The notes under the pieces were generated by a model. That model worked only from the letters and a program-made list of their open reading frames with translations, made no database searches and had not been told where the DNA came from. A stretch of DNA of 64,000 bases from a virus (taxonomy: Duplodnaviria; Caudoviricetes): IMG/VR virus record IMGVR_UViG_2772190736_000001, positions 26,634 through 90,633 of that record; one strand, 5' to 3'. How positions within the stretch are numbered: position 1 is the stretch's first letter; the number at the start of each line of letters is the position of its first letter. A program made the translations under genes and the position numbers. Below are positions 2,442-54,109 of this stretch, one piece after another.

Positions 2442-3527
2442 TCAGAGCTGCTTGGGGACGCGGAGGCGGTCCCACGAGGTCTTGCCGGGGATGCCGTTGG
2501 CGTCCGTGCCGGAGTAGCCGAGCTTGCGCTGCCACTTGGCGTACGACTGCCGGTCTGAGCTGGTGAAATGCGGGCCGGGCCCCTGGGCGTAGGCGGAGCA
2601 ACCTTCGGCGACCAGGCGGCGTCCCATCGCGGTGATGATCGGGGAGCGGCGGCCGGGGCTGAAGAACGCGGCGCCCGGAAACGGCTCGTTCGCCGGGGCA
2701 GCCGGAGCCTTGCCGGGGAGGGTGCCGAGGAGCTTCTTCAGGCTGGCCTCCCCCGGGATGCCGTCGGCGGCCTTCCCGGTGAGGCCCAGGGACTTCTGGT
2801 AGTCGGCGTAGTTCCGGGTGTCGGCGTCGGACCAGGTAGGGCTGGGGCCGTGTGCGTAGTGCTTGCCGAAGCCCTTGGCGACGAGGGCCTTGCCGACGCG
2901 GGTGACGTGGTCACCGACGGCGCCGTACCCGTATGGCAGGCCGTTGATGGTGACCTTGTAGCGGGCCGGGGTGGGGGTGCTGGTGGACGGCTTGCTGCCG
3001 CCGGTGCTTCCGCCAGGTGCGGGCTTCTTACCGACGATGGCGGCCGCGCGGCGGACGATCTCGTCGAGCTGGGCAACGATCTTCGGCCCGGGGCAGTCGG
3101 GGTGGTTGCCCCACGCCTTGCCGCCCATGCCGTGCCATCCGAGTCCCCGGTCGTCCGGCCCGGCGGCCCGCCGGAGAGGGACGTTGTCGTATGTCTGGTG
3201 GACCCAGGCGAAGATTTCGGCGTTGCGGTCGAGCTGCTGCTCGGTAAGGGCCTGGCCTCCGCGGCCCTCGTTCTCCGACGACAGCCAGGTTCGGTTGCCG
3301 TTGCCTTGCGCCCATGCGCGGTCGGCGGTGTCGACCCACTGGTAGAGCTCGCCGGCGCGGCCGGTGCCCCAGTGGGAGGAGGCTTCGGAGGCGGGGTTAC
3401 GGAACCAGGAGTCGGTGCCCATGAGGGTGCCGGCCATGATGTGCACGACGAGGCCGCGGACTTCTTCCTGGCCGCCCTTGCGGAAGTTCGGGACGGGGCG
3501 CCACGTGGCACCAGGCATGCGTGCCAT
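2442..3527 (-). CDS. Endolysin: N-acetylmuramoyl-L-alanine amidase with two peptidoglycan-binding domains
   Basis: LVVH, SSHW, AWAQG, ENEG, CPG amidase_2 motifs; two ADGIPG-type PG-binding repeats. Confidence 0.92.
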   Translation of the reverse strand: MARMPGATWRPVPNFRKGGQEEVRGLVVHIMAGTLMGTDSWFRNPASEASSHWGTGRAGELYQWVDTADRAWAQGNGNRTWLSSENEGRGGQALTEQQLDRNAEIFAWVHQTYDNVPLRRAAGPDDRGLGWHGMGGKAWGNHPDCPGPKIVAQLDEIVRRAAAIVGKKPAPGGSTGGSKPSTSTPTPARYKVTINGLPYGYGAVGDHVTRVGKALVAKGFGKHYAHGPSPTWSDADTRNYADYQKSLGLTGKAADGIPGEASLKKLLGTLPGKAPAAPANEPFPGAAFFSPGRRSPIITAMGRRLVAEGCSAYAQGPGPHFTSSDRQSYAKWQRKLGYSGTDANGIPGKTSWDRLRVPKQL

Positions 3528-3655: not shown

Positions 3656-3750
3656 GCCAGGCTCCTTGTCCCCATGCCGGTGGTCTGGATCGGCGCGCAC
3701 CTGCGGGGGTGCGGTCCCTCGGGGGTTGGAGCGTGGGCGGAGGGTCGCCC

Positions 3751-3800
3751 TGTGATCAGCGTAGAGGCGGGGTGGCGGATCGTTCCCCCTGCTCCCCTGG
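3751..3800 (-). promoter_or_regulatory. Putative phage late promoter (lysis cassette)
   Basis: GGAGCAGGGGGA-N20-TACGCT-GATCACA; same architecture before scaffold, portal, PKS and terS. Confidence 0.65.
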
Positions 3801-7400: not shown

Positions 7401-8303
7401 TCAGAGGGCGGTGTAGGCGTCGCGCCAGGTCAGGCGCAGTCGGGCGGTGTTGGTGTTGTCGACGGCTGTCCAGCGCATCTCGGACTGCCCGGGTGGCAGG
7501 GAGAACTGGTCGATGCGTGAGGCGGGGCTCAGGTAGGAGAGGGCGTTGCCGCCGGTCTCGCGGGTGACGGTGCGAAACCCGGGCCGGGTGTCGATGTCGA
7601 TCCACTGGCCGGCTGTGAGGGCGAGGGTGGGCAGTTGCAGGGTGCGGCCGGTGGGGACGTGGGTGATCGTGACCTGGGCGCAGGGTCCGGTGATGCGGAT
7701 GATCGGCCAGGTGTCGGTCGTGCCGGCGTTGGTGACCCAGCCGGGGCGGTCGGCGGCGACGGTGCCGTCCTGGACGTAGACCGGGGCGACGACGGGGGCG
7801 GCGAATCCGCCGCCGGTGAGCCAGCCGAGGGGGATCTCGGCGACGGTTGTGGTGTCGGCGTACCAGAGGGGGTCGGTGGCGAGGTACTCGATGTCGAGGG
7901 GGATGTAGCCGTGGATGGAGCGCTGCATGTCGGCGTCGAGGCGGCGCACACGGCCGTGGAGGCGCTTGACGGGGCGGCCGGGCCATGCCAGGCGCAGGTC
8001 CTGGGTGGTGCCGGCGGTGAGGCGGATGGCGGCGGTGTGCAGGGGCTGCTGGAGGTCGGCGAGGAGGTTGAGTGCGGCCGCGCGGTCGCCGGGGATGCGG
8101 ATCGCCGCGTCGATCTGTACGGGGCGGGCGGCGTAGTAGTCGGGGCCGGGCCAGGCGCCGTCGAGGGACGGCTGATCGACGTCGTTGTCGCGTACGGGGG
8201 GCCGGCCGAGGCCGGTGATGTCGCGGATCTGCACGGCGGTGTCGGCGCCGATGACGATGCCGGCGAGGTCCAGTTGTCCGGTGGTCAGGATCGGGTCGGT
8301 CAT
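7401..8303 (-). CDS. Distal tail protein (Dit)
   Basis: 300 aa after tape measure; DPLWY, NAG...WP.I.ITGP, C-terminal WRDAY. Confidence 0.85.
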   Translation of the reverse strand: MTDPILTTGQLDLAGIVIGADTAVQIRDITGLGRPPVRDNDVDQPSLDGAWPGPDYYAARPVQIDAAIRIPGDRAAALNLLADLQQPLHTAAIRLTAGTTQDLRLAWPGRPVKRLHGRVRRLDADMQRSIHGYIPLDIEYLATDPLWYADTTTVAEIPLGWLTGGGFAAPVVAPVYVQDGTVAADRPGWVTNAGTTDTWPIIRITGPCAQVTITHVPTGRTLQLPTLALTAGQWIDIDTRPGFRTVTRETGGNALSYLSPASRIDQFSLPPGQSEMRWTAVDNTNTARLRLTWRDAYTAL

Positions 8304-11300
8304 CGGGTCGCCACTCCCCCTCTGCGTGCGCGGCGCTGCTGACGGTCGATCTCGGCGGCGATCTGGTGGGCGGTGGCGCCCGTACGGAGGGTGGAGACGT
8401 TGATGTTGGTGTCGCCGGTGCTGCCGGGCAGGACGACGATCTGCTGAGAGGAGCGGGCGTCGGTCAGGCCGACGCCCATGCGGCGGGCAGCTTCGCGCAG
8501 GACGGGCAGGGCGCGGGAGCGTTTGTGTGAGCCGAGGGGGATGTAGGCCTCGCCGCCGGTGGAGGGTTCAGCGAAGGTGACGGCGCCGGCGCGGGTGGAG
8601 TAGATGCCTTCGCGGATGCCGCCGTTGGCGTAGGCGAGGCCCCGGTTGGCTCGGGCGAGGTCGGCCAGGAACTTCGTCGAGCGGCTTCCGAGGGACTTCT
8701 TGATCTGTGCGGAGGCCTTGTTGGCGATGGTGATGATCTCGTCCTCGCCGAGACCGGTGGTGGCGGCGACGTCGTGGATGCCGATCCTGGACGTCTTTAC
8801 GGCAGCGATGATCTGCACGAGGGAGGCGAGCTCGTCCTGGCTGAGCTGCTTGTTGGCGGTCTTCGCGGAGTCGTTGGCGGCCGAGGCCTTCTTCTTGTCC
8901 TTCACCGCCTCGACGGCAAGCTTCTGCGCGGCTTCGTCGCCCTGCGCCGCGAGCATCGTGGCGAGGTCGCCGAAGCCCTGGGCGCTCAGGGTGGCGAGGT
9001 TCTGCTGGAAGGCGGCCGTGGTCTGATTGGAGCCGTTCAGCTGCTTGGTGAGGTCGGCGAGGGTGGCCTTGGCGAGCGGGCCGAGTTTGCGCAGGTTGGA
9101 GACGATCTCCCGGAACTGCTTGTTCGACGACTTGGCGAGCGCTGCGACCATCGCGGCGCCTTCTTCGCCGAGGTCGCGGAGCATGCCGATGATGTCGCCG
9201 CCGCCCCGGGCCGCGATCTTCTGCAGGTTCGACTCCCAGGCGCCGTTCGCGGAGATGGCGTCCTTGAGGGTCTTGGCCCAGTCGGTGAGGCTGAACTTCT
9301 GCCGGTAGCGGGTCTCGGCCTTGCTCGCGTTCTCGGTGGCGGTGGTGAGGGCGCGGCGGGCGGAGGCGACCTGCCGTTCGGCGGCCGCGAGCTGCGCGGC
9401 GGTGTGCTTCTTGCTGCGGACCTCGCGGAGTTTGGCCTCGGCGTCCCGCAGCCGGTCGACCGCGTCCGCGCGGGCCCGGATGGCCTTGTTGTAGTCCTCG
9501 CGGGTGATGGGCTGGTGTGTCTCGTCGTAGCGGGACTGCACGTCGCCGGCGCTGCGGCGCAGGGCGGTGGGGGTGTAGGAGAAGCCGCCGGACGCGAAGG
9601 CGTGGATGCCGCCGTTGGCGTTCCATACGATCGCGCGGGGGTCACCGCCCAGGCGCCGGATGGTCTCCTCGGCGATGGCGCGCGAGCGGGGCCGCTTGGA
9701 CGGGGCGAGGGGGATGTACGACTCGCCGCCGGTCTCGGGTTCGGCCCAGATGCGGTAGGTCGCGTGAGGCCGTGCGATCTGCGCGGTGTGCTTCTCCCGC
9801 ATGCCGCCGTCGGCGAAGGTCTCAGCGCCGGCCAGCACGTTGCCGTTCGCGTTGACGACGTTGCGGCTGGTCTGCTGGCGGTTGATGTGCTCGGTGATGC
9901 GTACGTCGCGAGTGGTGATGGTGATGGTGCGGTCCTGCAGCCGGTCGCGTGCTTCCTGCACGGCGCTGATCCCCGCGAGCGCGGTACCGGTCTGGGCGGT
10001 AACCCGGACCTGCCCGTTGGGGAGCTTCTCGGTCTTGTAGCCGAGCTGCTGGAGCAGGGAGATCGCTTCAGCGGTGATCGCCGAGACGACGACCGACTTG
10101 GTGCCCGGGGTCGCCTGGATCTTCTCGATGACCTGGTCGAGTCCCGCGAGGGCGTCCTCGCGGTCCATCTCGACCTTGGTCTCGGTGACGTCAGGGATGG
10201 TGATGATCTGCGCGGCCAGGAGCGCGGCCTGCTCTTTGGTCAGGCCCATGGCCCGCGCGGTGGCGATGAGGCTGGTCTGGCCGCGCCGGTAGATGTCATT
10301 GATCTGCGTCCACGGCGCGTCTGCTTCGCGGGCGGCGGCCGCGGCCTCGTCGGTCTTGGTGCCGAGTGTCTGCAGGGCGGCGGCGGCGTCGCGGGCCTTC
10401 TGGCTGTTCAGGTCGAGCTTGCCGCCGGTCATGGTGAGTGCGCCGGCGTTCTTCTTCGCGGCCTCGGCGGCGTCGTCGATGGCTTGCTCGAAGCCGATCA
10501 TGCCGCCGAGCGCGGCCCGGTTCACGTCATTGAGGGCCTGGATGGCATTCCTGAGCCCGTCGGCCGACTGCTTCTGGGCGTCCAGCTTGACCTTGGTGTC
10601 GAGGGCCTGCTGGCCGAAGACGCCCATGGACTGGGCGGCGAGTTGCTGCTCTGCCTTCAGGTTCTCGACGGCCGCCTGGTACTGCGGCATCAGGCCCTGG
10701 ACGTCCTTGAGGCTGTGGCCCTCCGCGCGGGCGGCTGCTGCGATCTTCTGGAAGTTCGCAGCGGCGAGCTCGGCGTGGCCGGACTGGACGAGCTGGGCCA
10801 TGGCCTCGTCGAGGCCGTTGAAGTCCTCTTCGAGCGCGTTGAGGGACTTCTCGCCCTGGGAGAGCTGGTCGAAGAAGGGCTTCGACTGGCGACGCAGGTC
10901 GTCGAACCAGTCAATGCCGATGGATCCCTCGTCGATGAACTTGTCGAGCTTGTGGCGGGCATAGGCGATCTGGCCCATTTTCTCGATGAGGCCGTCCATG
11001 TCGCCGAACGTCTTGCCCAGCTCGCCGGTGAACTGGGCGGCGACGCCGAGGTTCTTCAGCGACGTCGTGAGCTTGTCGACTTCCGGCGGCGCGCCCTTGG
11101 CTGCTTCGCCGATGGCGGTGACGCCGACCGCCACGAGCGCGAGGACCGCCAGGACGACGGAGGCCCTCTGCATGAGGGTGAGCTGCTGGGTGACGCCGGC
11201 GATGGCGGAGGCGACGCCGCCGAACCTGGCTGCGCGAACGAAGCGGCTGGTGTTGGCGGCGACCAAGGCCATGCCGGGCGCCATCGCTCCGAACGCCATT

Positions 11301-12805
11301 CCTGCGAGCTGGACGGCTTTGAGCGCGAAAGCGACCTGCAGGAGGGTGGAGAGGACGTCGGTGGGGATCGCGTTGACGAGCTGGGCGAAGGCGTTGACGA
11401 CGGTGAGCATGGTGACGCCGGCCTCGGAGCCGGCCGCGACCAGCTTGAGGAGCATACTGAACAGCTCGGACAGGGTGTCGGCGACGGCCGGGCCGTTCTG
11501 GCGGGCGTAGTCGAGGAACTCCCGGAGGTTCTGGCCGACCTTCCCGGTGCTCAGGCCGCGCGTGAGGCTGACGATGCCGGTGTTGGCCCGCGCGAGGGTC
11601 TCGACCGCGAACGTGGTGAAGCGGTCCATGAAGCTGTCGAAGGTCTGGGTGTTCATGCCGCCGGCCAGGATCGTCATGAACCGGCTGGCCTCGCGCGAGG
11701 CTCCCTTCGCCAGGGGCGCCGACCGCTGCATTAGGCCGCTGAAGACGCCCATGGTCTTGATGGCGACGGGCATCGTGTCGCCGGCCAGGGCGTCGGAGAA
11801 GGCCTTGTAGTCGTCGGTGAACACCTCGTACGCGGCGGCGGCCTTCCGGGTCGCGGCCGGGGTGTCGCGCAGGATGCGGAGCCGCTCCTTCTCGGCCTGG
11901 GCGGCTTCCGGGGAGGAGCGGCCGTGCTCGCGGACGGCCTCGTCGTACTTGGTTTGCGCCTCGGCGGCGTCGGCGAGGGCCTTGATCTGGCCGCCGATCG
12001 CGATCCCGAACACTCCGACCGCGATACCGGCCGCCCCCAGACCGGCGGCGATCGGCCCAGCGGTCGCGGCGATCGGCAGCAGGGCGGTGGCGAGCATGCC
12101 GGCGACGACGAGGAGCTGCTGGCCGCTGCCGGTGGTCTGGTTCATCGCGTTGCTGGCGGTGCCGAGGCTGCCCCGTAGGCCGCCCATGCGGCCTCGGACG
12201 TTCCCGAGGGCACCGTTGAGGTCCCCCATGCTGCTCGTCAGCGTCGTGGTACGGGTGTTGAGGGACTCCAGGCGGCCATCGGCGATCCGCGCGGCGGTGT
12301 TGAGGGACCTGAGTCCCCCTGCGGCGAGCAGGGCCCGGTTGCGCAGCTCGTCGAACGCGGACGCGGTCGCGGAGGCGCGGCCGCGGAGGGTCCGCAGGAC
12401 GCGTGCGGTGTCCTGGGCCGCTTCCTGGACCTGCCGCAGGGCCAGGGCGGCGCCGTTGCCGGTGCGGTCGTCGAGGCGGAGCTCGATGGTGACGTTGGTG
12501 TCGAGGCGGCGAAGGCGTTCCTCCGCGCGCCGGGCCTGCTCGGCGATCTGCCGCAGGTTGGTGGCGGCACGGGCGGACTGCCGCTCCAGCCGCTGGAGAC
12601 GGCCGGCGGCCGTGCTCGCCGCGCCCCCCATGCCGCGCAGCGCGCTCTGGGAGGTGCGGGCCGCTGTCCCGAGTTGTCGGATCTCCGTGCGGGCATCGCG
12701 TACGGCGGAGCCGAGGTCGCGGGCGTGGCCGGCGTTGCGGCGCAGGGTCTGCGCGAGGTTCGTTCCCCGGCCGCGCAGGTCGACGGACAGATTCCACTGG
12801 GCCAC
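8300..12805 (-). CDS. Tape measure protein
   Basis: 1501 aa, Ala-rich helical, central TM region, two AEPxTGGExYIPL repeats. Confidence 0.93.
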   Translation of the reverse strand: MAQWNLSVDLRGRGTNLAQTLRRNAGHARDLGSAVRDARTEIRQLGTAARTSQSALRGMGGAASTAAGRLQRLERQSARAATNLRQIAEQARRAEERLRRLDTNVTIELRLDDRTGNGAALALRQVQEAAQDTARVLRTLRGRASATASAFDELRNRALLAAGGLRSLNTAARIADGRLESLNTRTTTLTSSMGDLNGALGNVRGRMGGLRGSLGTASNAMNQTTGSGQQLLVVAGMLATALLPIAATAGPIAAGLGAAGIAVGVFGIAIGGQIKALADAAEAQTKYDEAVREHGRSSPEAAQAEKERLRILRDTPAATRKAAAAYEVFTDDYKAFSDALAGDTMPVAIKTMGVFSGLMQRSAPLAKGASREASRFMTILAGGMNTQTFDSFMDRFTTFAVETLARANTGIVSLTRGLSTGKVGQNLREFLDYARQNGPAVADTLSELFSMLLKLVAAGSEAGVTMLTVVNAFAQLVNAIPTDVLSTLLQVAFALKAVQLAGMAFGAMAPGMALVAANTSRFVRAARFGGVASAIAGVTQQLTLMQRASVVLAVLALVAVGVTAIGEAAKGAPPEVDKLTTSLKNLGVAAQFTGELGKTFGDMDGLIEKMGQIAYARHKLDKFIDEGSIGIDWFDDLRRQSKPFFDQLSQGEKSLNALEEDFNGLDEAMAQLVQSGHAELAAANFQKIAAAARAEGHSLKDVQGLMPQYQAAVENLKAEQQLAAQSMGVFGQQALDTKVKLDAQKQSADGLRNAIQALNDVNRAALGGMIGFEQAIDDAAEAAKKNAGALTMTGGKLDLNSQKARDAAAALQTLGTKTDEAAAAAREADAPWTQINDIYRRGQTSLIATARAMGLTKEQAALLAAQIITIPDVTETKVEMDREDALAGLDQVIEKIQATPGTKSVVVSAITAEAISLLQQLGYKTEKLPNGQVRVTAQTGTALAGISAVQEARDRLQDRTITITTRDVRITEHINRQQTSRNVVNANGNVLAGAETFADGGMREKHTAQIARPHATYRIWAEPETGGESYIPLAPSKRPRSRAIAEETIRRLGGDPRAIVWNANGGIHAFASGGFSYTPTALRRSAGDVQSRYDETHQPITREDYNKAIRARADAVDRLRDAEAKLREVRSKKHTAAQLAAAERQVASARRALTTATENASKAETRYRQKFSLTDWAKTLKDAISANGAWESNLQKIAARGGGDIIGMLRDLGEEGAAMVAALAKSSNKQFREIVSNLRKLGPLAKATLADLTKQLNGSNQTTAAFQQNLATLSAQGFGDLATMLAAQGDEAAQKLAVEAVKDKKKASAANDSAKTANKQLSQDELASLVQIIAAVKTSRIGIHDVAATTGLGEDEIITIANKASAQIKKSLGSRSTKFLADLARANRGLAYANGGIREGIYSTRAGAVTFAEPSTGGEAYIPLGSHKRSRALPVLREAARRMGVGLTDARSSQQIVVLPGSTGDTNINVSTLRTGATAHQIAAEIDRQQRRARRGGVATR

Positions 12806-19537: not shown

Positions 19538-20602
19538 TCACCACACCGTCGCGGCGATGTGGATGTCGGGGGTGTACATGACCGGCATCGCGGCCGCGTT
19601 GCACTTCGTCCACACCTGAACCGGGTCGTCCTGGTAGCCGGAGGTGACGATGATGCCCGGTGCGACCTCGGCCTCGATGGACGGGTTGCCGCCGGAGGAC
19701 AGGACGATGCCTTCGGCGGTGAGCCCGTACTGGGTCTCGGCCATCTGCCGGGTGTTCGGCGGCAGGAGGAAGAACATGTTCTCCGGCAGGGGCCGCTTGT
19801 TGGTGCCGTCGTCCAGGGGGACCTGCACGTCGTAAACGGTGATCGGCGGCAGTCCGTACCGGCCGCGGACGACGTTGACCTGGTCGGGCGCGAGGACGGA
19901 CGTCGGGATGGTGGACGCGGAGTTCACCGAGCCGTAGTAGGCGGCGCGGTAGGAGTCGTTGCCCATGGCGAGCGCCATCGTCTTGTACGAGGTGAGGGCA
20001 CGGGAGGGCATCGGGGCGCCAGACTTGCGGAGGACCTCGATCCAGGCCATCTCGTCCGCGAGCATGTCGGCGGTCGGGTCGGTCCAGACGGTGGCCGCGG
20101 TCGGCATGTTCGCCGCAGGGACCTTGTGGTCGGCCTCCAGGGTGAGACCGTTCTCGCCGGTGAGGGTGAACTTGCCGTCGACGAGGAGGTCGCCAGCCGC
20201 CAGTTCCATGCGGTTCTGGATCGACAGGACGTGGGCGGCGACGTCGTCGTAGATGGCGCTGACGAGGTCCTCACCGTCCATGCCGCGGGAGACGTTCTGC
20301 AGGATCGTCTCGAGCTCGCCGACGATGTACTTCTGGCCGAGAGGCAGGAGCTTGCCCTCGGTCACGACGCTCGTGATCTCACGGGACGCGACCTTGGTCT
20401 GGGCGTCCCACGCGCGGTAGGACGCGGCGGCGACCCGACGGCGGGTGGAGCGGGTCTGCCACTTCACCGAGTTGACCGTGCGCTCGGGGATGACGGACTG
20501 GGTGAGCTCGTAGTCGGCCGGGGTCTGGATCTCGCGGACGAACGCGTTGATCTCGGTCGGGTTGATGCCCCGCAGGAGGACCTCAAGCATGTCGTTAGGC
20601 AT
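19538..20602 (-). CDS. Major capsid protein (lambda gpE-like)
   Basis: 354 aa, RAWD, NRMEL, DPV.VWTK..A..MPV motifs. Confidence 0.92.
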   Translation of the reverse strand: MPNDMLEVLLRGINPTEINAFVREIQTPADYELTQSVIPERTVNSVKWQTRSTRRRVAAASYRAWDAQTKVASREITSVVTEGKLLPLGQKYIVGELETILQNVSRGMDGEDLVSAIYDDVAAHVLSIQNRMELAAGDLLVDGKFTLTGENGLTLEADHKVPAANMPTAATVWTDPTADMLADEMAWIEVLRKSGAPMPSRALTSYKTMALAMGNDSYRAAYYGSVNSASTIPTSVLAPDQVNVVRGRYGLPPITVYDVQVPLDDGTNKRPLPENMFFLLPPNTRQMAETQYGLTAEGIVLSSGGNPSIEAEVAPGIIVTSGYQDDPVQVWTKCNAAAMPVMYTPDIHIAATVW

Positions 20603-21455: not shown

Positions 21456-22265
21456 TCAGGCTGCGTCGTCGGTGCGCAGGCCCATCCGGATAGCGCGGGC
21501 GCGGGCAGCGTCGCGGAGCGTGTCCTTGCCCGCGGCCGGGGTGCGGGCGGGAGGTCCGCCGGCCGGGGCGCCGCTGGGGGCGGGCGGCAGACCCTGGGGG
21601 GTGGGGGTGCCACCGAACAGGGTGCTGCGGCGCTCCTTGAGGGCTTCGGCGGCCGCGGTGATGGCGGCGTCGTCGGCGTCCTCAGCCACGCGGGACCGGA
21701 CGAGTTCGAAGGCGTCGTCCAGGTCGTCGCCGGTGGCGCCGAGCTTGACGAGCGCGGCGCGGACGCGGGTCTCGCGCTCTCGTACGGCGGCGGCCTGTTC
21801 CTGTGCCTTTGCGGCGGCCTCGCGGGCGGCGAGCTGCTGCTCCCGGGTATTGAGCTCCTCGGCGCGGCGCTGCTCTTCGGTGAGCTGGGCCTGCCGGGCG
21901 GTCTGGGCGTCCTTGAGGAGCTGGGCGACCTGGGTGGGGTCGAGGTTGTCGGTGGGGAGGCCGGCGGCTTCGGCGATGGCGCGGAGCGCGGCGTTGCGGC
22001 CTTCGTCCTTCTCGTTCTTCATCAGGACGTTCAGGCGCCGCTGGGTGATAGTGACCTTGTCCTCGTCGTCGCCGGTGGCCGCGGTGGCGGGCGGTACGGC
22101 GGGCGGGGTGACGGCGGCCTGCTGCGGCATGTTCGCCGGTGTCGGCGGCGCGGGCGGGGTGGCGGGGTCGCCGTTGTAGAAGACGGCCATGCCCTGGATG
22201 CCGGTGTAGGGGCGGGCCCAGGCAGTGTCGTGCACGGTGGGGCGGTACAGCGCGGGGCGGCGCAT
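21456..22265 (-). CDS. Capsid scaffolding protein
   Basis: GGAGG RBS, Pro-rich ends, central coiled coil, upstream of decoration and capsid genes. Confidence 0.82.
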   Translation of the reverse strand: MRRPALYRPTVHDTAWARPYTGIQGMAVFYNGDPATPPAPPTPANMPQQAAVTPPAVPPATAATGDDEDKVTITQRRLNVLMKNEKDEGRNAALRAIAEAAGLPTDNLDPTQVAQLLKDAQTARQAQLTEEQRRAEELNTREQQLAAREAAAKAQEQAAAVRERETRVRAALVKLGATGDDLDDAFELVRSRVAEDADDAAITAAAEALKERRSTLFGGTPTPQGLPPAPSGAPAGGPPARTPAAGKDTLRDAARARAIRMGLRTDDAA

Positions 22266-22289: not shown

Positions 22290-22359
22290 TGTCGTCGGCC
22301 CCGCGCCTTGATCCAAGGAGAGCACACTCCATACGGATCGGTCCCCCTGCTCCTCCTGG
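22290..22359 (-). promoter_or_regulatory. Putative late promoter and conserved leader (scaffold/capsid)
   Basis: GGAGCAGGGGGA-N20-TCTCCT-N6-AAGGCGCGGGGCCGACGACA. Confidence 0.6.
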
Positions 22360-22407: not shown

Positions 22408-23325
22408 ATGAGACGCGGATGGAAAGAGCTGGCCGAACCCATCGAGCAGCTGTGCCGGGTTTTCGAGACCAGCGCGTCCGTGCATGAGGGATTCTCCTCA
22501 ACGTCCCGTGCCGCTGATGAGGCGCGAGACCGAACGCTCGATGGCCCCTGGGGCGCTCGTGTCACACGAGACGCAAACGTCACTGCTCAGGCCATTGCGG
22601 TGCTGATGATGGACAACCTGGGCTCGCTCGTCGACATCATCAACAGCCCGCGTGGGGTCTACTCGGGATTCACCATGACGCGCGCTGTGGTCGACTCTGC
22701 GACTGGGGCCTGGTACCTCATGGATCCGGAAATTGACGTCCGCGAACGAGTTCGTCGGTTCATGAACTTTCGCCTTGTCAGCTCTCACGAGCGCGGGCGG
22801 CTGCTCCCTGAGGAATGGGACGATCGCCGAGCCCGGATGATTCGCGAGGAGTCGCGCGAGGAGACCGAGAGGATCCTTCAGGGCGCCCGGCTGCACGGCT
22901 ACCAGGTGACGGCAGCGAGCGGCATGAGGGCCCCGTTTCTAGGGGACCGCCTGCCAAGCACGACTGCGTTGGCCAGCCAAGTCGTTCCCCGGGACAACCC
23001 TCTTGGACGAACGTCCTGGAAGCTCACCTCTGCAGTCACTCACGGGACTCTGTATGCCATCTCCATGGCTTTCGAGACGGTCGGCGTAAGCGAGGACCCT
23101 ACTCACGGCGATGTAGCCGTACGTCCTCGCCTCAGCCCTCGTAACGCTGCGGCACAGTTCTCCGCAGCGCCCTTGGCAGCGATCTCGACTCTGGTACGGC
23201 TGTACCGCCAGTTCGGTTGGGACATGCAGGAGCTGGTCCAAGCATCTGCCGCAGTGGAGGCGATGCTGTGGGAGTTCATGCGCGTTCTGTCTCCTCGGGA
23301 GACTCCAGCGACGTTTCGTCCGTGA
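22408..23325 (+). CDS. Moron: all-helical hypothetical protein (DUF5677/HEPN-like)
   Basis: 305 aa, antisense within head module, lower GC; R..VD..A..WY and LTSAVTHG motifs. Confidence 0.65.
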   Translation: MRRGWKELAEPIEQLCRVFETSASVHEGFSSTSRAADEARDRTLDGPWGARVTRDANVTAQAIAVLMMDNLGSLVDIINSPRGVYSGFTMTRAVVDSATGAWYLMDPEIDVRERVRRFMNFRLVSSHERGRLLPEEWDDRRARMIREESREETERILQGARLHGYQVTAASGMRAPFLGDRLPSTTALASQVVPRDNPLGRTSWKLTSAVTHGTLYAISMAFETVGVSEDPTHGDVAVRPRLSPRNAAAQFSAAPLAAISTLVRLYRQFGWDMQELVQASAAVEAMLWEFMRVLSPRETPATFRP

Positions 23326-25135
23326 CCGGGAGCTGGACGACAGGCGGGGCGGGGTCGGGGTTGATGTCGATGCCGAGGTAGGTGGCGACCGCGTCGGTGG
23401 AGCCAGTGGCGTCGGCGAGGTAGCGGGCCTGTTCGAAGCGGCGGGCCTGGATCTGGGCGATCTCGGTCTCGGCGTCGTCCATCGGCCAGCCTGCTTCGGC
23501 GAGGATCCTTACGGCGGTCTCGAGGGACATGACGCCGGCGGTGACGGCCTCGGAGACCTGGGTGAGGACGGCGGCCTTGTCGGTGGGGGTGTACGGGCCG
23601 AAGGAGAGCAGGGCCCGCTGGGTCTGGACGCCGGTCCAGTCGGGGTGCGCTCCGGCGAGGGACATGCGTTGGACGAACTTGAGGAGCAGGGCGTACTTGT
23701 GGGCGCGGGCGAGGCGCATGGAGCCGACGAGGGAGTCAAGCGGGCCGAGGGAGATCTCCAGGGCGTAGCCGGAGGGGACTTCGGAGGGGTTGACGGTGCC
23801 GAGGGTTACGGCGGGCAGGCGGGCGATCGTGGCGGCCCGTTCGGACAGGTCGGTGCGCTGGTTGCGGAGCTCGGCGAGCTGGGGGGAGGTGTCGACGGCG
23901 TCGAGGCGGCCGCCTTCGGGGAGCTCGAGGACGGTGCCGGGGGCGACGGCGAGTTCGCTGCGGCCGTTGGATCGTCCGCCGGAGAGCGCGATGATCGGGG
24001 AGCCGGTGGTGGCGGAGGCCTTTGCGGAGTCGGTGTCGGTGCCGGCCAGCTCGTCGAAGACCTGCAGCACCTTCGCCAGGCTGGATGTGCCCCAGTGCTC
24101 TTCGGCGTCGGGGACGGTGTTGGGGACGTGGATCACTGGGATGAAGTCGAGGTAGAGGTCGAGGTGGTCGAGGACTTCGCCGGTCGGGCCGGTGGCGTAC
24201 TGGGCCTTGTCCATGGGGAGGTTGTCGACGTCGTGGGGGGCTTTGAGGTCGCCGAGGTCCCAGGTGGCGTCGGTGAGGTAGCAGGTGACGTACGACGGGG
24301 TGTCGTTCCACAGGTACTGGCGGGCGATGAACCCGGACTCGGTGGGGATGTCGCCGCGGCCGAGGACCGGTTGGGCGGGGGCGTCGCCGTCGGTGTCGGT
24401 CATGACGGGGGCGCGGACGGGCCGGCCGGTGCGGTCGACGCCGGAGGCGGTGACGGGCCGGATCCAGTCGAGTTCGTAGGTGATGCGGCGCAGCCGCGCG
24501 GGCAGGCCGCGCTTCTTGTCTGCGGGAAGGTCCCAGGCGAGGTGGACGCGTTCGGGGTAGTCGGAGGCGTCGCCGTCTTCGGCGAGGACCGGGTAGTAGA
24601 AGCCGGGGTCGAACGCCTTGAGGCGCACCCTGCCCTTGTTGGGGTCCCAGGCCAGGAGGTAGACGCCGTCGCCGAGGGTCACGGCCTTGCGTTCGGTCTG
24701 GATCATCCGCATGGACAGGAGCTCGTCCTCGGCCCAGTCGCGCAGGAGGGTTTGGACGCGTTCGGCCATCGCCTGGTCGGTGTCGGGGGTGTCGGTGTCG
24801 GTCTGTTCGGCGCTGGGGACGACGATGGTCTGCTCGCGGCCGAGGACGTTGGCGAGGATGGTCTCGATGAACATGGACGGGTCGCCGAACTCGCGGCGGT
24901 CGCTGGCGGTGGGGTCGCGTAGCTGGGCGAGTTCGGCGGCCTGGTTGTTGGCGTAGGCGGCGAGGAGCTTGTAGGCGGCCAGGCGTCGCTCGTCGCCGGC
25001 CGGGACCCAGGAAGCGGCGGCTTCGGGGAAGGCGCGGCGGTGGGGCATGCCGAGGGTGTCGGAGTAGATGGGCTTGTAGTTTGCCCATCCCCAGGCGTCG
25101 ATGACGACGTCCTTGATGCCACTGAGCAGGCCCAC
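23276..25135 (-). CDS. Portal protein
   Basis: ~620 aa, LGDGVY, FIPVIHVPN, WG.S, PSGYAL motifs; first gene of head operon. Confidence 0.88.
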   Translation of the reverse strand: MGLLSGIKDVVIDAWGWANYKPIYSDTLGMPHRRAFPEAAASWVPAGDERRLAAYKLLAAYANNQAAELAQLRDPTASDRREFGDPSMFIETILANVLGREQTIVVPSAEQTDTDTPDTDQAMAERVQTLLRDWAEDELLSMRMIQTERKAVTLGDGVYLLAWDPNKGRVRLKAFDPGFYYPVLAEDGDASDYPERVHLAWDLPADKKRGLPARLRRITYELDWIRPVTASGVDRTGRPVRAPVMTDTDGDAPAQPVLGRGDIPTESGFIARQYLWNDTPSYVTCYLTDATWDLGDLKAPHDVDNLPMDKAQYATGPTGEVLDHLDLYLDFIPVIHVPNTVPDAEEHWGTSSLAKVLQVFDELAGTDTDSAKASATTGSPIIALSGGRSNGRSELAVAPGTVLELPEGGRLDAVDTSPQLAELRNQRTDLSERAATIARLPAVTLGTVNPSEVPSGYALEISLGPLDSLVGSMRLARAHKYALLLKFVQRMSLAGAHPDWTGVQTQRALLSFGPYTPTDKAAVLTQVSEAVTAGVMSLETAVRILAEAGWPMDDAETEIAQIQARRFEQARYLADATGSTDAVATYLGIDINPDPAPPVVQLPVTDETSLESPEETERA

Positions 25136-25152
25136 GGGGCGCACCTTTCCGG

Positions 25153-25208
25153 TGTCGGGCCCCGCGCCTTGTGATCAGCGTACGGCTACACGCCGCTGGC
25201 ACTCCCCC
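25153..25208 (-). promoter_or_regulatory. Putative late promoter and conserved leader (portal)
   Basis: GGGGGA-N20-TACGCT-GATCAC-AAGGCGCGGGGCCCGACA. Confidence 0.65.
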
Positions 25209-26100
25209 GGGCTCGCTCCAGAGCCTTGCGGTACTTGCGGAGCCGGTTGTTCTGGTACCAGTCGAAGCGCCGGATGGTGAAGGAGTCTCTCCACCCGGCG
25301 ATCCTGCTGTGTACGAGCTGCATGCGCGGATCGAGGAGCCGGGTCTGGTCCTGATCGGGTCCGAAGGAGTTACCGAAGAGCGATGCGTCTCCGGCCTCGC
25401 GGAAGAACGCGGTGCCCACGAGGACAGTGTTGATGCGGGCAACCGACCGGAATGCCTTGTGCTCGGCATCGGTCATCCCCTTCTCCACGTTGATCGGGGG
25501 CATGGGTTCGTAGCCGATGTCGTTGACGCCGACGTACCAGGTCCGGTAGCCGCCCGGGTTGCCGAAGTAGAAGGACTCGATGTAGGTGAAGCGACGGGCC
25601 CCAATCCAGGGCCAAAAGTCGTCTGGCTCCGGCATCGCACCAATGCGGGTTTTACCGAGTTTCACCAGGGTGTTTCCGACGAGAAGTCGGGGGCGGAACC
25701 ACCGGCTGGTGGTGGTGATGCCGTAGATCTCAACAGTGCTCTCGGTCGACCAGGTGACCAGATAGCCGAACCGACCGAGCTTCCACGTCCGCTTGGTGAG
25801 TTCTACCTCCAGGTCCTTGTCGGGCACCGGGTTCTCGGGCTGGTACCGGTGGACCGTGCACGGGGAGACCCACGTCGGCTCGCCAAAGAGCTCCTGCATG
25901 TAGTCCGGGCTGACCCAGGGGGCGACCTTCCGGACCCGAGATATGACGTGGCGGCGTCGTCCGAGGGTGCTGCGCCAACCGGCCGCCGCCGTCTTCATCA
26001 GGGTGAGGGTGGCAACGATGGTGGCGGCAAGGGTCCACACGTTCAAGGTGGTGCTGTACCAAGGCTGATCAGCTACGGGCATGGCGGAAGCATGCAACAC
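25186..26100 (-). CDS. Moron: membrane-anchored hypothetical protein (possibly ETEC_3214-like)
   Basis: N-terminal TM helix, YIESFYFGNPGGY...GVNDIG motif, lower GC. Confidence 0.65.
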   Translation of the reverse strand: MLHASAMPVADQPWYSTTLNVWTLAATIVATLTLMKTAAAGWRSTLGRRRHVISRVRKVAPWVSPDYMQELFGEPTWVSPCTVHRYQPENPVPDKDLEVELTKRTWKLGRFGYLVTWSTESTVEIYGITTTSRWFRPRLLVGNTLVKLGKTRIGAMPEPDDFWPWIGARRFTYIESFYFGNPGGYRTWYVGVNDIGYEPMPPINVEKGMTDAEHKAFRSVARINTVLVGTAFFREAGDASLFGNSFGPDQDQTRLLDPRMQLVHSRIAGWRDSFTIRRFDWYQNNRLRKYRKALERARGSASGV

Positions 26101-26337
26101 AGCGCGGCTGCGCGGTACGGCATTTGACAGGGCTCATCGGCTCTACGCTCCCGAAGCTGCCACGAAGTGACAAGTAGCTCTCTGTAATCGCGCTTGACCT
26201 GCGGTGATGCTGTGGTACCTGGTGCCGACTTCACGGCGAAGGCAACACGCTGACATCGGATCAGCGCGTTGACCTGCAAGGTTCTCGAAGCTCCGGATTC
26301 GTGAACTCACCGCATGGCCCGGTACTCCCGAAGGTGT

Positions 26338-26368
26338 CGCCCGCCCCGTGTGTTGCCCGGGGCGGGCG
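26338..26368 (-). terminator. Stem-loop after PKS
   Basis: CGCCCGCCCCG-N9-CGGGGCGGGCG. Confidence 0.6.
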
Positions 26369-26386
26369 CGGCTGCTCGGTGGACCT

Positions 26387-27460
26387 TCAGGTGGTGTGCC
26401 AGGTGCCGCGGAGGGCGGCGGTGGTGAATCCGGGGCCGTAGGCGACGACCACGCCGGCGGCGCCATCCTCGGGCGGGTCGGCGTAGGTGCGCTCGAGGAC
26501 GCGGAGGATCGATACGCCGCCGAGGTTGCCTTCTTCGGTGAGGGTGGCGGTGGAGTGGCGGGTGTCGACGTCGTCGAGGCCGAGGGCGCGTGCGGTGTCG
26601 GTGATGATGCGGGGGCTGCCGGGATGGATCGCGGCCCAGTCGACGCTCTGGTCGGGGCCGATCCAGTCGAGGACGGTGGGCAGGACGTCGTCGGCGGCGG
26701 TGAGGGCTTCCTTCGTGGAGTCGAAGTGGAAGCCGTCGGTTCCGATGCGGCCGCTGTAGCGGTCGACGCTGCCGGGCAGGACGTATTCGAGGGTGTCGTC
26801 GGGGCCGGCGATGTGGAGGCCGGGGCCGAGGGGCTGGTCGGAGACGATGCAGGCGGCGGCGGAGTCGCCGAACAGAGCCTTGTAGATCATCGCCTCGATC
26901 GAGGTGTCGTTGTGGTTGTAGACGCTCGAGATGATCTCGGCGGCGATGACGAGGACCTTGGAGCCGGGTCGGGCGGCGATGAGGTCGACGGCGCGGGTGA
27001 GGGCCTGGGTGCCGCCGGCGCAGGCCATGGTGGTCAGGGCGATCCGGCGGACGGTCGGTCTGAGGCCGAGGGCGGCTATGAGGTGGATGTCGAGGTTGGG
27101 GACGGACCAGCCGGTGGAGTGGGTGGTGATGATCGCGTCGATGTCCGGATAGCTGCCGGGGTCGGGTCCGGGCGTGAGGCCGGCGGCGGCAAGGGCCTGC
27201 TGGGCGGCGTTGGTGGCCAGGGCCAGGGCGTCGGTGAAGGCGGCGGTGGAGCGTTCCTCGATGGTGGCGTCGCCGGACACGGTGGCGGCGGTGAGCGGCC
27301 GGCTGAAGTAGCGGGTCTGCACGCCGAGGTTCCCGATGACGCGGGGTATGACGCGCAGCTGCGGGTGGTCGGGGTGGCGGCCGGCGATGTCGTCGATGAT
27401 TTCGCTGGTCGTCACCTTGTGGGTGGGCAGGGTTGTGATGGGGCGGGAGATGTAGGGCAC
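26387..27460 (-). CDS. Type III polyketide synthase (RppA/PhlD-like)
   Basis: Intact triad: MACAGG (Cys), AIHPGS (His), EGNLGG (Asn); ALFGDS, YGPGF; GGAGG RBS before GTG 27460. Confidence 0.93.
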   Translation of the reverse strand: MPYISRPITTLPTHKVTTSEIIDDIAGRHPDHPQLRVIPRVIGNLGVQTRYFSRPLTAATVSGDATIEERSTAAFTDALALATNAAQQALAAAGLTPGPDPGSYPDIDAIITTHSTGWSVPNLDIHLIAALGLRPTVRRIALTTMACAGGTQALTRAVDLIAARPGSKVLVIAAEIISSVYNHNDTSIEAMIYKALFGDSAAACIVSDQPLGPGLHIAGPDDTLEYVLPGSVDRYSGRIGTDGFHFDSTKEALTAADDVLPTVLDWIGPDQSVDWAAIHPGSPRIITDTARALGLDDVDTRHSTATLTEEGNLGGVSILRVLERTYADPPEDGAAGVVVAYGPGFTTAALRGTWHTT

Positions 27461-27509
27461 GTGGTCCTCCGGCACGGTGGCGGTCGTCGTGGGGGTGCGG
27501 AGTGGGGGT

Positions 27510-27550
27510 GCGGTCAACGTACACACATGCGGCGGAGTTGGTCCCCCCTG
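27510..27550 (-). promoter_or_regulatory. Late-type promoter upstream of PKS
   Basis: CAGGGGGGA-N20-TACGTT-GAC, same spacing as structural-gene promoters. Confidence 0.6.
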
Positions 27551-27559
27551 ACCTGCGGC

Positions 27560-28396
27560 TCAGGTGGTCCGGCGGGCGCGGAGCATGGGCAGTCTGGTGT
27601 GCTGCTTCTTCTGCCCGGGGTGGTAGATGAGGACGATCAGACGAGCTCCTGGGGCGCCGAGGGGCATGGCTGCGCACATGGTGACGTGCCCGGGGCCTTG
27701 GAGGGCGTGGTGTATGGGGCGTTCGTCGCCGTCGGGGTGGATGTGGGCGCCGCCGGATTCCCAGAGGGGTGCGAGATCGGGGTCGGCGCGGGCGTCTTCC
27801 GCGATTTTGAGGAGGGTTTCGTCTTCGGGGCGGAGGGCGAGCGCGGCGCGGAGCTGGGGCAGGACGAGGGGGGCCCAGACTGCTTTCCAGTCGGTGAGCA
27901 TGGTGCGGCCGCGGGGGTCGAGGAGCATCCAGCGCATCGTGTTGGCGGGGACGTGGCTGTCGGGGAAGAGGTCGGCGAAGGCGGCGTTGTGGGCTATGAG
28001 GTTCCAGGAGGCGTCGTTGACGTAGGCGGGGTGGGCGATGCCGTCGACGGCTTCCTGCCAGACGCCGGGGATCTCGAGGCCGGAGGACGGGTTGAGGGGG
28101 TAGGGCGGGTCACCGATGCCGGCGTACCTGCACAGGCAGCCCCACTCCTGCTCGTTGAGGCCGAAGAGGCGGCCGACCTGCTCGAGGTAGTCGACCGGGG
28201 GGTTGGGGTAGCGGCCCGATTCGAGGCGGTAGTACGTGTTGGCGGCGCGGCCGGTGAGTTCGTCGACCTGCTGCTGAGAGAGGCCGGCGGCGCGGCGGCC
28301 TTGACGGCTGGGCCGGGTGAGGCCGTGGTCTTCCGGTTCGATGAGATCGCGGCGCTCGGAGAGGAGCGCCTTGAGGGCCTTGCGGTTCATCTTCAT
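27560..28396 (-). CDS. MmyB/MltR-family regulator (XRE HTH plus PAS-like ligand-binding domain)
   Basis: RR..I.P...GL....GRR..GLSQQQV, YYRLESGR, PAYV.D..WN..AHN, N..RW...DP motifs. Confidence 0.9.
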   Translation of the reverse strand: MKMNRKALKALLSERRDLIEPEDHGLTRPSRQGRRAAGLSQQQVDELTGRAANTYYRLESGRYPNPPVDYLEQVGRLFGLNEQEWGCLCRYAGIGDPPYPLNPSSGLEIPGVWQEAVDGIAHPAYVNDASWNLIAHNAAFADLFPDSHVPANTMRWMLLDPRGRTMLTDWKAVWAPLVLPQLRAALALRPEDETLLKIAEDARADPDLAPLWESGGAHIHPDGDERPIHHALQGPGHVTMCAAMPLGAPGARLIVLIYHPGQKKQHTRLPMLRARRTT

Positions 28397-28442
28397 CGTT
28401 GCCTTTCCCCCGTGTACCGTGCACGCGTGCCCTGGGAGTGTA

Positions 28443-28469
28443 TTTATTGGTGCGCCGTTTCGTAATAAA
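28443..28469. promoter_or_regulatory. AT-rich inverted repeat, candidate operator
   Basis: TTTATT-N15-AATAAA upstream of the MmyB-like gene. Confidence 0.4.
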
Positions 28470-28895
28470 AACTGCGCGTGGATTTCTGTCGGTTGAACGG
28501 TGAAGCTGTGCCCTGTGGGCGCGCTGACCTGCCGGGAAGCGGGGTAGGGCGGCCACACTGCAACACCCCAGGACGGTCCTGCGAGCGGCGGATACGCAAT
28601 CCGTCAAATCGCCTTGTGGGAAAGTCCTGTTGCCCTCGTCGGGCTCCGGCAGGGGCGTTGCCGGACGGTGCTGTATTCCGTGCTTCGGTGCGGATTTCGC
28701 AGCTCGGCACCGTTCCGGTTCGCCTTGCCGGGGCTTTGAGGGCCCCTAGAGCTACGGTCGGCGTCGACAATCGCCCCGATGCCGCGTCCTCGGTGCCGAC
28801 CGTGAAGTACGGGTCAGGTGGCGCTTCCCCCGGCGCCCTCTGGCCAGCCGAGAAGGCCCCGGACGGTCACTCCACCCCCGTTCGGGGCCTTCGGT

Positions 28896-29228
28896 CTACC
28901 CGCCTTCGGATTCCGTGTCGTCGTCGACGAGCGCGTGCTCGGCGTGCGGGTAGCCGCAGGCGCCGGCGCCGAAGTAGCGGGCCTGGCACGGTCCGGGGCC
29001 TTCGTAGGTGTGGTGGGTGATCAGCCGGTGCTGGCCCTCCTCCTTCCGGACCGCGGCCATCACGTCCTTGGCGAGCGTCTCCGCCCATCCCCCGGGGACC
29101 ATGGGCTGACCGGCTGGCCAGGTCAGCTTCTGCACCTGCTCGAGGACGGCCCTGTACCGAGGGTCCTTGCGGGCGTCGGCTCGGGCTCCGGGGTTGAAGT
29201 CGGTGAGGGCGGGTTCTGCGTCGGCCAC
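28896..29228 (-). CDS. Hypothetical phage protein
   Basis: 110 aa, AGGAGG RBS, C-terminal H/C cluster. Confidence 0.65.
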   Translation of the reverse strand: MADAEPALTDFNPGARADARKDPRYRAVLEQVQKLTWPAGQPMVPGGWAETLAKDVMAAVRKEEGQHRLITHHTYEGPGPCQARYFGAGACGYPHAEHALVDDDTESEGG

Positions 29229-29362
29229 AGGGCCTCCTGGTCGTAGGGCGGGCAGGTCCAGTCGAGGGCGATGGCGATCTGGCCATCGAGCGGGGCCGGC
29301 GTCGGGGCGGTGAGCTGCTGCTCCAGGGCGCCGAGGCGGGCGCGGGTCTCAGGCGTCGTCAC
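29123..29362 (-). CDS. Hypothetical phage protein
   Basis: GAGGA RBS; PLDGQ motif; 3' end overlaps next gene. Confidence 0.45.
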   Translation of the reverse strand: MTTPETRARLGALEQQLTAPTPAPLDGQIAIALDWTCPPYDQEALWPTQNPPSPTSTPEPEPTPARTLGTGPSSSRCRS

Positions 29363-29371
29363 CTGCTGTCC

Positions 29372-30064
29372 TCAGATCAGGGCGAGGGCGGACCGCTGAA
29401 CGGTTTCCCCATGGGAGGCGATCAGGCGGAGCTTCGGGAACGACTTGACCGGCTCCTGCCCGGGAACAGCGGGCCACTCGTCGGCGGACAGTCCGTACCC
29501 CGGCGGTCCCCAGCCTGAGTCGAACAGGATGTGCTTCGCGGCCTTCCGGTACTTCGGCTCCCAGTCCCAGGTGAAGAACAGCGGCAGGAGACCGCCGCGG
29601 TTCGGAATGGGTTCCGGTGCCACGGTGCAGCTGTGCCTGGCGCGCTTGTAGATCGGCGTGGCGTACTCGCGGCAGCGTTGGCGGTTGCAGAAGCCCCAGT
29701 GTCGAGACCAGCCGGTGACCGGGTCCCGTTCGCTGAAGCCGTGGACGGTGTTGCGTCCGCAGAGCCGGTCGACGCGGACCATGGGGGCCTGGCATCCGTT
29801 CGGGGTCTGGTCGTGGAGCTTGGAGTCGTAGCGGGGGACGTCGTCGGCGAGGTGGCGCCACATCTGCTCGTTGGTGGCGTTGAGGACTTCGCGGGTGCGG
29901 GTCCAGGTGGTGATCGTGGGGTCGTGGCGGCGGAGGTCCCGGAGACCGACCCAGCCGAGGGCGAGGATGAGGTCGCGGGTGCCGGTGGGCATGCGGCGCT
30001 CGGTGTAGACGCGAGCGAGGAGCTGGTCGTAGCGGGCGAGCGCGTTCTTGTCGTCGATGCTCAC
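29372..30064 (-). CDS. Hypothetical Cys-containing phage protein
   Basis: 230 aa, GAGG RBS, several Cys pairs. Confidence 0.7.
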   Translation of the reverse strand: MSIDDKNALARYDQLLARVYTERRMPTGTRDLILALGWVGLRDLRRHDPTITTWTRTREVLNATNEQMWRHLADDVPRYDSKLHDQTPNGCQAPMVRVDRLCGRNTVHGFSERDPVTGWSRHWGFCNRQRCREYATPIYKRARHSCTVAPEPIPNRGGLLPLFFTWDWEPKYRKAAKHILFDSGWGPPGYGLSADEWPAVPGQEPVKSFPKLRLIASHGETVQRSALALI

Positions 30065-32348: not shown

Positions 32349-32457
32349 GTGGCGTCTCCTCCGGGGAAGGGCGGGGTGGGTCAAGGGTCGCGCGGTTCGG
32401 CGCGGTTGATGCCCCTGCTCGGCTTGCCCTCGATTGGGGTGGCCGGTGTCCACACTC

Positions 32458-54050: not shown

Positions 54051-54109
54051 GGGGCATCGAAAACGCCCTGATCGGGGATCATCACAGGTAAGGCGCGGGG
54101 CCGACGACA
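54051..54109 (+). promoter_or_regulatory. Putative late promoter and conserved leader (terminase)
   Basis: GGGGCA-N20-GATCAT-N7-AAGGCGCGGGGCCGACGACA; the 20-mer is identical to the scaffold leader. Confidence 0.6.

Follow-up and report, generated by a model that had tools for sequence, protein, structure and literature searches.

The locus studied here raises the question of whether a polyketide synthase (PKS) gene carried among the genes of a Streptomyces phage is transcribed under the control of the phage, under that of its own neighbouring regulator, or under both. The window, meaning the whole stretch of 64,000 nucleotides that was analysed, comprises positions 26634-90633 of C27, a 90.6-kb (90,633 bp) ZL12-like phage-plasmid found in an 8.1-Mb Streptomyces genome; this Streptomyces phage can also exist as a plasmid. 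Its genes match those of the Streptomyces plasmid-phage ZL12 (90,435 bp) over most of its length. Profile searches placed a holin (2058-2417), an endolysin (2442-3527), the capsid protein (19538-20602) and the scaffold (21456-22265) on the minus strand, which also carries the portal protein gene (23276-25144; phrog_64, E 2.7e-16) and a 1,501-aa open reading frame (8300-12805) assigned as the tape measure by size and position alone; the terminase genes (54132-56238) are on the plus strand. One inversion of ~27 kb distinguishes C27 from ZL12; it reaches from terS/terL to just past the PKS gene (window ~25150 to ~56240 versus ZL12 54100-81600), parts terS/terL from the portal gene and puts the regulator-PKS cassette immediately before the portal promoter, whereas ZL12 has 25 kb between cassette and portal gene, with the cassette on the opposite strand. 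Six elements were compared (C27, ZL12, G001, G004, G005 and G007), together with loci from GTDB genomes, here given L-numbers. The portal-after-PKS arrangement of C27 was also seen in L052-L054, and G001 has the cassette and backbone as in its relatives, with a different structural module. Between the PKS and portal genes of C27 lies an ETEC_3214-domain open reading frame (25186-26100, minus strand; NF043066, E 1.1e-39), with no homologue in ZL12, G001, G004, G005 or G007 and no PADLOC match. It lies outside the cassette, inserted after the PKS hairpin and before the portal promoter; by eye, this stretch is less GC-rich.

The synthase gene (26387-27460, minus strand) encodes a type III PKS of 357 aa with Pfam Chal_sti_synt_N/C domains, a relative of the VioA-like alkyl-alpha-pyrone synthases. 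Its best PDB match was 1U0M (E 5.5e-45), with the Cys, His and Asn triad aligned and the alignment starting from residue 3. It did not qualify as a THN synthase (RppA) equivalog, the 1U0M match being distant and no NCBIfam model reaching its cut-off, and its products are, judged by sequence, probably alkyl-alpha-pyrones. Upstream, adjoining the PKS gene and co-oriented with it, lies the gene for a VioB-like, MmyB-like/XRE regulator of 278 aa (27560-28396, minus strand; HTH_31 and MLTR_LBD), and just after the PKS stop codon there is a GC-rich, terminator-like hairpin lacking a T tract (26338-26368, minus strand; centroid -28.4 kcal/mol, z -2.5). PADLOC gave no match for the PKS, the regulator or their neighbours. 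The PKS was 65% identical to pCQ3.110c and the regulator 62% identical to the neighbouring regulator of pCQ3, a pair that is in turn 95% and 94% identical to VioA and VioB (PMC4924298), and the pair in the window is by these similarities a relative of the studied vioB-vioA violapyrone cassette. Violapyrones are 3-methyl-4-hydroxy-6-alkyl-alpha-pyrones. According to the accessible parts of that report, vioA lies on a circular plasmid of ~85 kb in S. somaliensis SCSIO ZH66 and makes violapyrones, of which the wild type produces little; vioB is a negative regulator whose deletion gave ~eightfold product, with no phage induction reported in those parts; and a host wblA mutant had more vioA transcript and less vioB transcript (PMC4924298). 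Since the two transcripts moved in opposite directions, vioA would have a promoter of its own, and since the ΔvioB effect came without induction, this homologous promoter should be able to fire in the plasmid state (PMC4924298). Another paper has a list of 21 vioAB loci (PMC5898002), and type III PKS genes on pZL12, pSLE1 and plasmid prophages had been noted earlier, in the accessible parts of the papers concerned, with no function given (PMC4487206, PMC10023795). Nothing was found in the literature searched on the promoters of type III PKS genes on such plasmids or prophages.

The gap between the regulator stop codon (27562-27560) and the PKS start codon is 99 nt long, and the motif that an earlier note on this DNA had described was indeed present in it: on the minus strand, from 27547 to 27516, the sequence reads GGGGGA, 20 nt, TACGTT and then GAC. 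The promoter-like element (27516-27549, minus strand) is composed of a G-box CAGGGGGGA (core 27547-27542), the 20-nt spacer and the -10-like hexamer TACGTT (27521-27516). The same spacing before the lysis and portal genes, also claimed in that note, was found at both places as GGGGGA-N20-TACGCT-GAT, the two copies reading on as GGGGGA-N20-TACGCT-GATCACA. The TCCGCC that the note had seen as shared between the PKS and lysis spacers does occur in both, although one position out of register (5-10 versus 6-11), and since the spacer is moreover not conserved among relatives we treated it as chance. Translation of the PKS from GTG 27460, the start that the note had proposed, agreed with a GGAGG 7 nt upstream, with homologues aligning to the same start and ribosome binding site (RBS), and with the PDB alignment beginning at residue 3. 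The transcription start site would be expected at ~27510-27508. The PKS leader is C-rich (27461-27515, minus strand; GACCGCACCCCCAC..., with the RBS GGAGG 7 nt before the GTG) and of a type also found in chromosomal copies; this leader reads GACCGCACCCCC and is without the late leader GGCGCGGGGCC described below. The hexamer agrees with the housekeeping sigma-70 -10 consensus TANNNT. A scan of 24900-29400 for consensus promoters and terminators gave 0 promoters and no terminator, a TTGACA-like -35 at 16-18 nt being absent, and a search of 25000-29000 against Rfam gave nothing near threshold.

Exact matches to GGGGGA-N20-TACGNT numbered three in the window (3758-3789, 25177-25208 and 27516-27547, all on the minus strand) versus 0.01 expected from 100 shuffles, a test that is partly circular because the pattern was defined on the tested sites themselves. 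With TGA added, the pattern had three matches in the whole 8.1-Mb genome, all of them on C27, and a reversed control had 0; a looser pattern gave three matches on C27, two elsewhere in the genome and one in the control, with no enrichment in the host. The motif is specific to the phage-plasmid. ZL12 carries it at three orthologous places (lysis, portal and PKS), and CAGGGG followed by TA(C/G/T)G(T/G)T, ~22 nt apart, was conserved in 7/7 aligned phage-borne cassettes, with a spacer that was not conserved. TGATCA, which contains GATC, was also seen to flank the motif: many PKS sites have it immediately before the G-box, and at the late sites GATCACA sits just downstream of the hexamer; because the ZL12 annotation includes an adenine methyltransferase, a link to methylation is possible.

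Each element has four late-type sites, before the small terminase (terS), portal, scaffold and lysis genes, where a G-box is followed after 20 nt by a hexamer ending in T (GATCAT, TACGCT, TCTCCT and TACGCT, respectively); the copies before the scaffold and small-terminase genes add to those at the lysis, portal and PKS genes. After the hexamer, 8-9 nt further on, comes the leader GGCGCGGGGCC (or GGGCGACCCTCC), with GGGCGACCCTCCGCC at the lysis site. The portal site (25158-25210, minus strand) reads GGGGGA-N20-TACGCT-GATCACAA-GGCGCGGGGCC and is orthologous in ZL12, G004, G005, G007, L053 and L054. The scaffold/head site (22297-22349, minus strand), CAGGGGGA-N20-TCTCCT-TGGATCAA-GGCGCGGGGCC, and the small-terminase site (54051-54102, plus strand), GGGGCA-N20-GATCAT and then GGCGCGGGGCC, were the same in ZL12, G004, G005 and G007, and the lysis site (3735-3791, minus strand), CAGGGGGA-N20-TACGCT-GATCACAG-GGCGACCCTCCGCC, was the same in ZL12, G004 and G005 and degenerate in G007. 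As a group, the late sites are conserved in C27, ZL12, G004, G005 and G007, the leader GGCGCGGGGCC being exact at the terS, portal and scaffold sites of all five (in C27 at 22297-22307, 25158-25168 and 54092-54102). The leader is reminiscent of the start-associated sequences known from Cluster K mycobacteriophages. Its GGGGC is able to base-pair with a GCCCC found immediately ahead of each start codon, which would leave the RBS in the loop, and these hairpins folded modestly better than shuffled sequences (z -0.9 to -1.4), a difference so modest that no structure is claimed. A literature search found nothing on a promoter-plus-leader signature of this kind (the original pZL12 paper, Zhong et al. 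2010, may treat transcription or induction), and within the literature searched the putative signature of ZL12-like elements appears to be previously undescribed.

Compared with this late class, the PKS site has the same box, GGGG(G/C)A, at the same distance of exactly 20 nt before a hexamer that ends in T. It lacks the leader GGCGCGGGGCC / GGGCGACCC that is present at all four late sites, and what it heads is one metabolic gene with a hairpin behind it, not a structural, packaging or lysis unit. Using a position weight matrix (PWM) trained only on the late sites of other elements, the PKS site ranked 5 on C27, 2 on G004 and G001 and 6 on G005, and fell outside the top 6 on ZL12; its score on C27, 13.6, was below the mean maximum of shuffled C27, 15.1, and the PKS site taken alone is therefore not significant genome-wide. 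Same-strand G-boxes with NACCCT-type hexamers were also found upstream of the regulator, at a distance of 1-7 kb, in C27, ZL12, G001, G004, G005, L011 and L012, and since G-box sites also precede non-structural genes the box need not be late-specific. One further site in the window (32384-32417, minus strand), GGGGCA-N20-GACCCT with a PKS-like C-rich leader (TGACCCACCCC), lies before a phrog_7499 gene of unknown function. In G001, two back-to-back G-box sites were seen at 69409-69515, one before an amidase endolysin with the hexamer TAGCCT, and the other, in the opposite direction, with its hexamer 6 nt from an ATG, possibly giving a leaderless transcript.

We scanned GTDB genomes for the cassette and obtained 44 loci, 43 of them usable. 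The regulator adjoined the PKS in 42/43, matched over 256-278 aa, and in L089 it was cut by the contig end after 45 aa. By eye, the 43 raw stretches upstream of the PKS look alike. Fifteen copies were aligned, with the plasmid clades and every chromosomal clade represented; the -10 hexamer, the C-rich leader and an RBS (GGAGG or GGGAG-like) were found upstream of the PKS in all 15, chromosomal copies included, which means that the phage was not the source of the core promoter. The G-box was counted as GGGG-N22-TAnnnT within 125 nt of the PKS start over 48 rows, where contigs of 80-105 kb were taken as plasmid-size and where L093, L014 (PKS frameshifted) and L095 (a 41-aa fragment) were left out, as they were from the tree. 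An in-phase box was present in 17/18 plasmid-size contigs, 2/23 large contigs and 3/7 fragments, with 0.17/48 in shuffled sequences; the sole plasmid-size exception, L071, reads GGGT, and in 21/23 large-contig copies the box was altered or absent. None of the 10 tested genomes with large-contig copies had a ZL12-type portal, which the same query found in 3/3 plasmid-type control genomes. L091, one of the two large-contig positives, comes from a genome that does have a ZL12-type portal, and its copy looks like part of an integrated prophage. On these sequence counts, the phage context appears to maintain the in-phase G-box. The cassette is also common in the phage family, 26/34 PLSDB plasmids with a ZL12-type portal carrying the PKS, which argues for a retained function without telling which one. 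The other 8/34, without the PKS at E 1e-60, would be natural controls for the contribution of the cassette.

In a PKS tree built by a quick method from tblastn segments and rooted on one long branch, a chromosomal clade of nine rows was nested inside a plasmid clade with support 99. This clade retains TGATCAGGG, together with a loss of 1-3 nt that breaks the phase. The tree holds only two independent changes of context, both accompanied by loss of the box in the expected direction (p = 0.5), and with only two such changes significance is out of reach. The cassette itself is, as far as can be judged from sequence, older than its phage context.

Regarding the factor that might read the G-box, the MmyB-like regulator was rejected as unlikely, both because G007, an 83-kb element with an estimated completeness of 92%, carries the sites before the terS, portal, scaffold and lysis genes with neither regulator nor PKS, and because chromosomal cassettes have the regulator and no box. 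A phage sigma factor was likewise set aside: no sigma region 2 (Sigma70_r2) was found on C27, the Sigma70_r4_2 matches were the putative small terminase and an HTH/endonuclease-like protein, and pZL12.7c, annotated as 'sigma-H', had no Pfam match. Candidate readers are a WhiB+HTH protein (C27 4991-5461) and a second Wbl protein that is found in all six elements (C27 17990-18838), both outside the window (L050), and a sigma-region-4-like HTH protein (C27 4428-4994). Wbl proteins may bear on the PKS promoter, because deletion of host wblA activates vioA in the homologous system (PMC4924298, accessible part).

Taking these results together, we consider it about an even chance that the gap holds a hybrid promoter, in which the core belongs to the cassette and the G-box to the phage, giving the synthase an input from the phage programme. 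The core (-10 hexamer TACGTT, C-rich leader, GGAGG and GTG 27460) would be part of the widespread two-gene cassette and would presumably be read by the principal sigma factor of the host. In the ZL12-like copies the place of the -35 would be held by a G-box (cAGGGGSA) that precedes the hexamer by exactly 20 nt, the box and phase that also head the four late units (small terminase, portal, scaffold/head and lysis), and a factor encoded by the phage-plasmid would read it; if so, the synthase would receive the phage input on top of repression by its own regulator. That the PKS and late-gene promoters have this box in common suggests that the phage switches the synthase on in its lytic programme. 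In favour of such a hybrid promoter we counted the motif with its spacing, its specificity for the element, the orthologous sites of ZL12, the 7/7 conservation of box and hexamer and the contrast between plasmid-size and large contigs, as well as the nested clade with its broken phase, the lack of a canonical -35, the box and portal site of pCQ3, the promoter of vioA's own and the 26/34 plasmids. Against it we counted the PWM score, the missing late leader, the -10 and leader in phage-free genomes, the G-boxes before non-structural genes, the two context changes only, the root on one long branch, the ΔvioB release without induction and the lack of sigma region 2 on C27. The claim of the earlier note that the PKS is wired to the late-promoter motif consequently survives in part: the box, its phase shared with the terS, portal, scaffold and lysis sites, and its presence in 17/18 plasmid-size copies stood, whereas the PKS site has no late leader, its -10 and leader belong to the cassette and are seen in phage-free genomes as well, G-boxes also precede non-structural genes, and the vioA homologue is, in the accessible part of its report, mainly under VioB repression (PMC4924298).

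Some of the same observations would fit a promoter that is purely the cassette's own, with the VioB-like repressor, through its ligand-responsive MmyB domain, and host developmental regulators governing the PKS; it would then be a moron whose expression, if any, falls in the plasmid (lysogenic) state, and the G-box likeness would have no effect on timing. We regard this as possible, if clearly short of probable. The -10 and leader in 15/15 aligned copies and the adjacent regulator in 42/43 speak for it and hold for copies from the 10/10 genomes without a ZL12-type portal, as do the ~eightfold product of ΔvioB and the raised vioA transcript upon host wblA deletion, both from the accessible part of that report (PMC4924298), and the PKS has its own hairpin terminator, no late leader and a PWM score below the shuffled maxima. 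However, a promoter of this kind leaves unexplained why the box is in phase in 17/18 plasmid-size versus 2/23 large contigs while the spacer drifts, and why a canonical -35 is absent. A different possibility, which we find unlikely, is that promoters with a G-box form a general class on the phage-plasmid and that the element-encoded factor reading them is not confined to late expression (being active, e.g., in the plasmid state or a middle phase), so that the PKS would be tied to the element and not to lysis. Such a class would account for the G-box and NACCCT-type sites upstream of the regulator in C27, ZL12, G001, G004, G005, L011 and L012 and for the window 32415 site with its PKS-like C-rich leader before the phrog_7499 gene, but these extra sites score near the shuffled maxima, and every one of the clearest copies stands before a structural or lysis unit, with none in the replication/partition half of C27. 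Read-through from the regulator promoter, with the motif as a chance match, is very improbable. In the window the box follows the regulator stop after only 11-12 nt, with no terminator in between, yet the gap measures 150-250 nt in ZL12 and others, a hairpin follows the ZL12 regulator stop, the box is in phase in 7/7 cassettes, and the vioA and vioB transcripts of the homologue, as given in the accessible part of its report, move oppositely (PMC4924298).

The literature treats vioAB as a cryptic plasmid-borne antibiotic cluster, and here its usual home is a phage-plasmid family (26/34 in PLSDB), the phage-borne copies of which retain a phage-type box that chromosomal copies have lost; should this specialised metabolite be under the control of a temperate phage, 'cryptic' may stand for 'waiting for the phage'. 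The suggestion in the earlier note that the PKS product would report ongoing lysis is speculation. A further-reaching idea, to which we give little credence, is that the phage-plasmid couples a diffusible alkyl-alpha-pyrone to its lytic programme, with lysing cells releasing a burst that acts on neighbours as an antibacterial weapon or as a signal, the latter being read by the MmyB-type regulator of sister lysogens. If true, this would be a small-molecule counterpart of peptide-based phage communication, in which the late programme would be wired in through the G-box and the VioB-like protein would act as receiver.

Among known systems, the vioB-vioA unit of S. somaliensis SCSIO ZH66 is alike in pairing a type III PKS with a co-oriented XRE/MmyB-type regulator as two genes, theirs on a circular plasmid of ~85 kb. 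The G-box-N20-hexamer arrangement is also found in the pCQ3 copy, where the synthase is preceded by GGGGCA-N20-TACCGT and which has a late-type portal site as well; the copy in the window differs in lying directly upstream of the portal promoter and in being known from sequence alone. The accessible text of the vioB-vioA papers treats the replicon as a plasmid and mentions no phage genes, late promoters or motif (PMC4924298, PMC5898002). pZL12/phage ZL12 (GQ919031) is alike in size, in its syntenic structural, lysis, replication and partition genes, in its late sites and in its cassette (pZL12.99/.100), and differs by the ~27 kb inversion and by protein identities that are mostly 45-75%. Promoters that keep a -10 and have their -35 replaced by the box of a factor are known from phages, as in the middle promoters of T4 (MotA) and in those of Mu (Mor/C) and P2 (Ogr). 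The likeness to these is in logic only, a -10-like hexamer and a non-canonical box at fixed spacing before several phage units, whereas the sequences are unrelated, the factors here are only candidates and the host is a high-GC actinomycete. Prophage morons, finally, have their own promoter and terminator within the late region, the classic moron promoter being independent of the phage programme. The PKS gene resembles them with its own promoter-like element, the hairpin after its stop codon and its position among phage genes, and differs from them in that its element has the upstream box of the late promoters.
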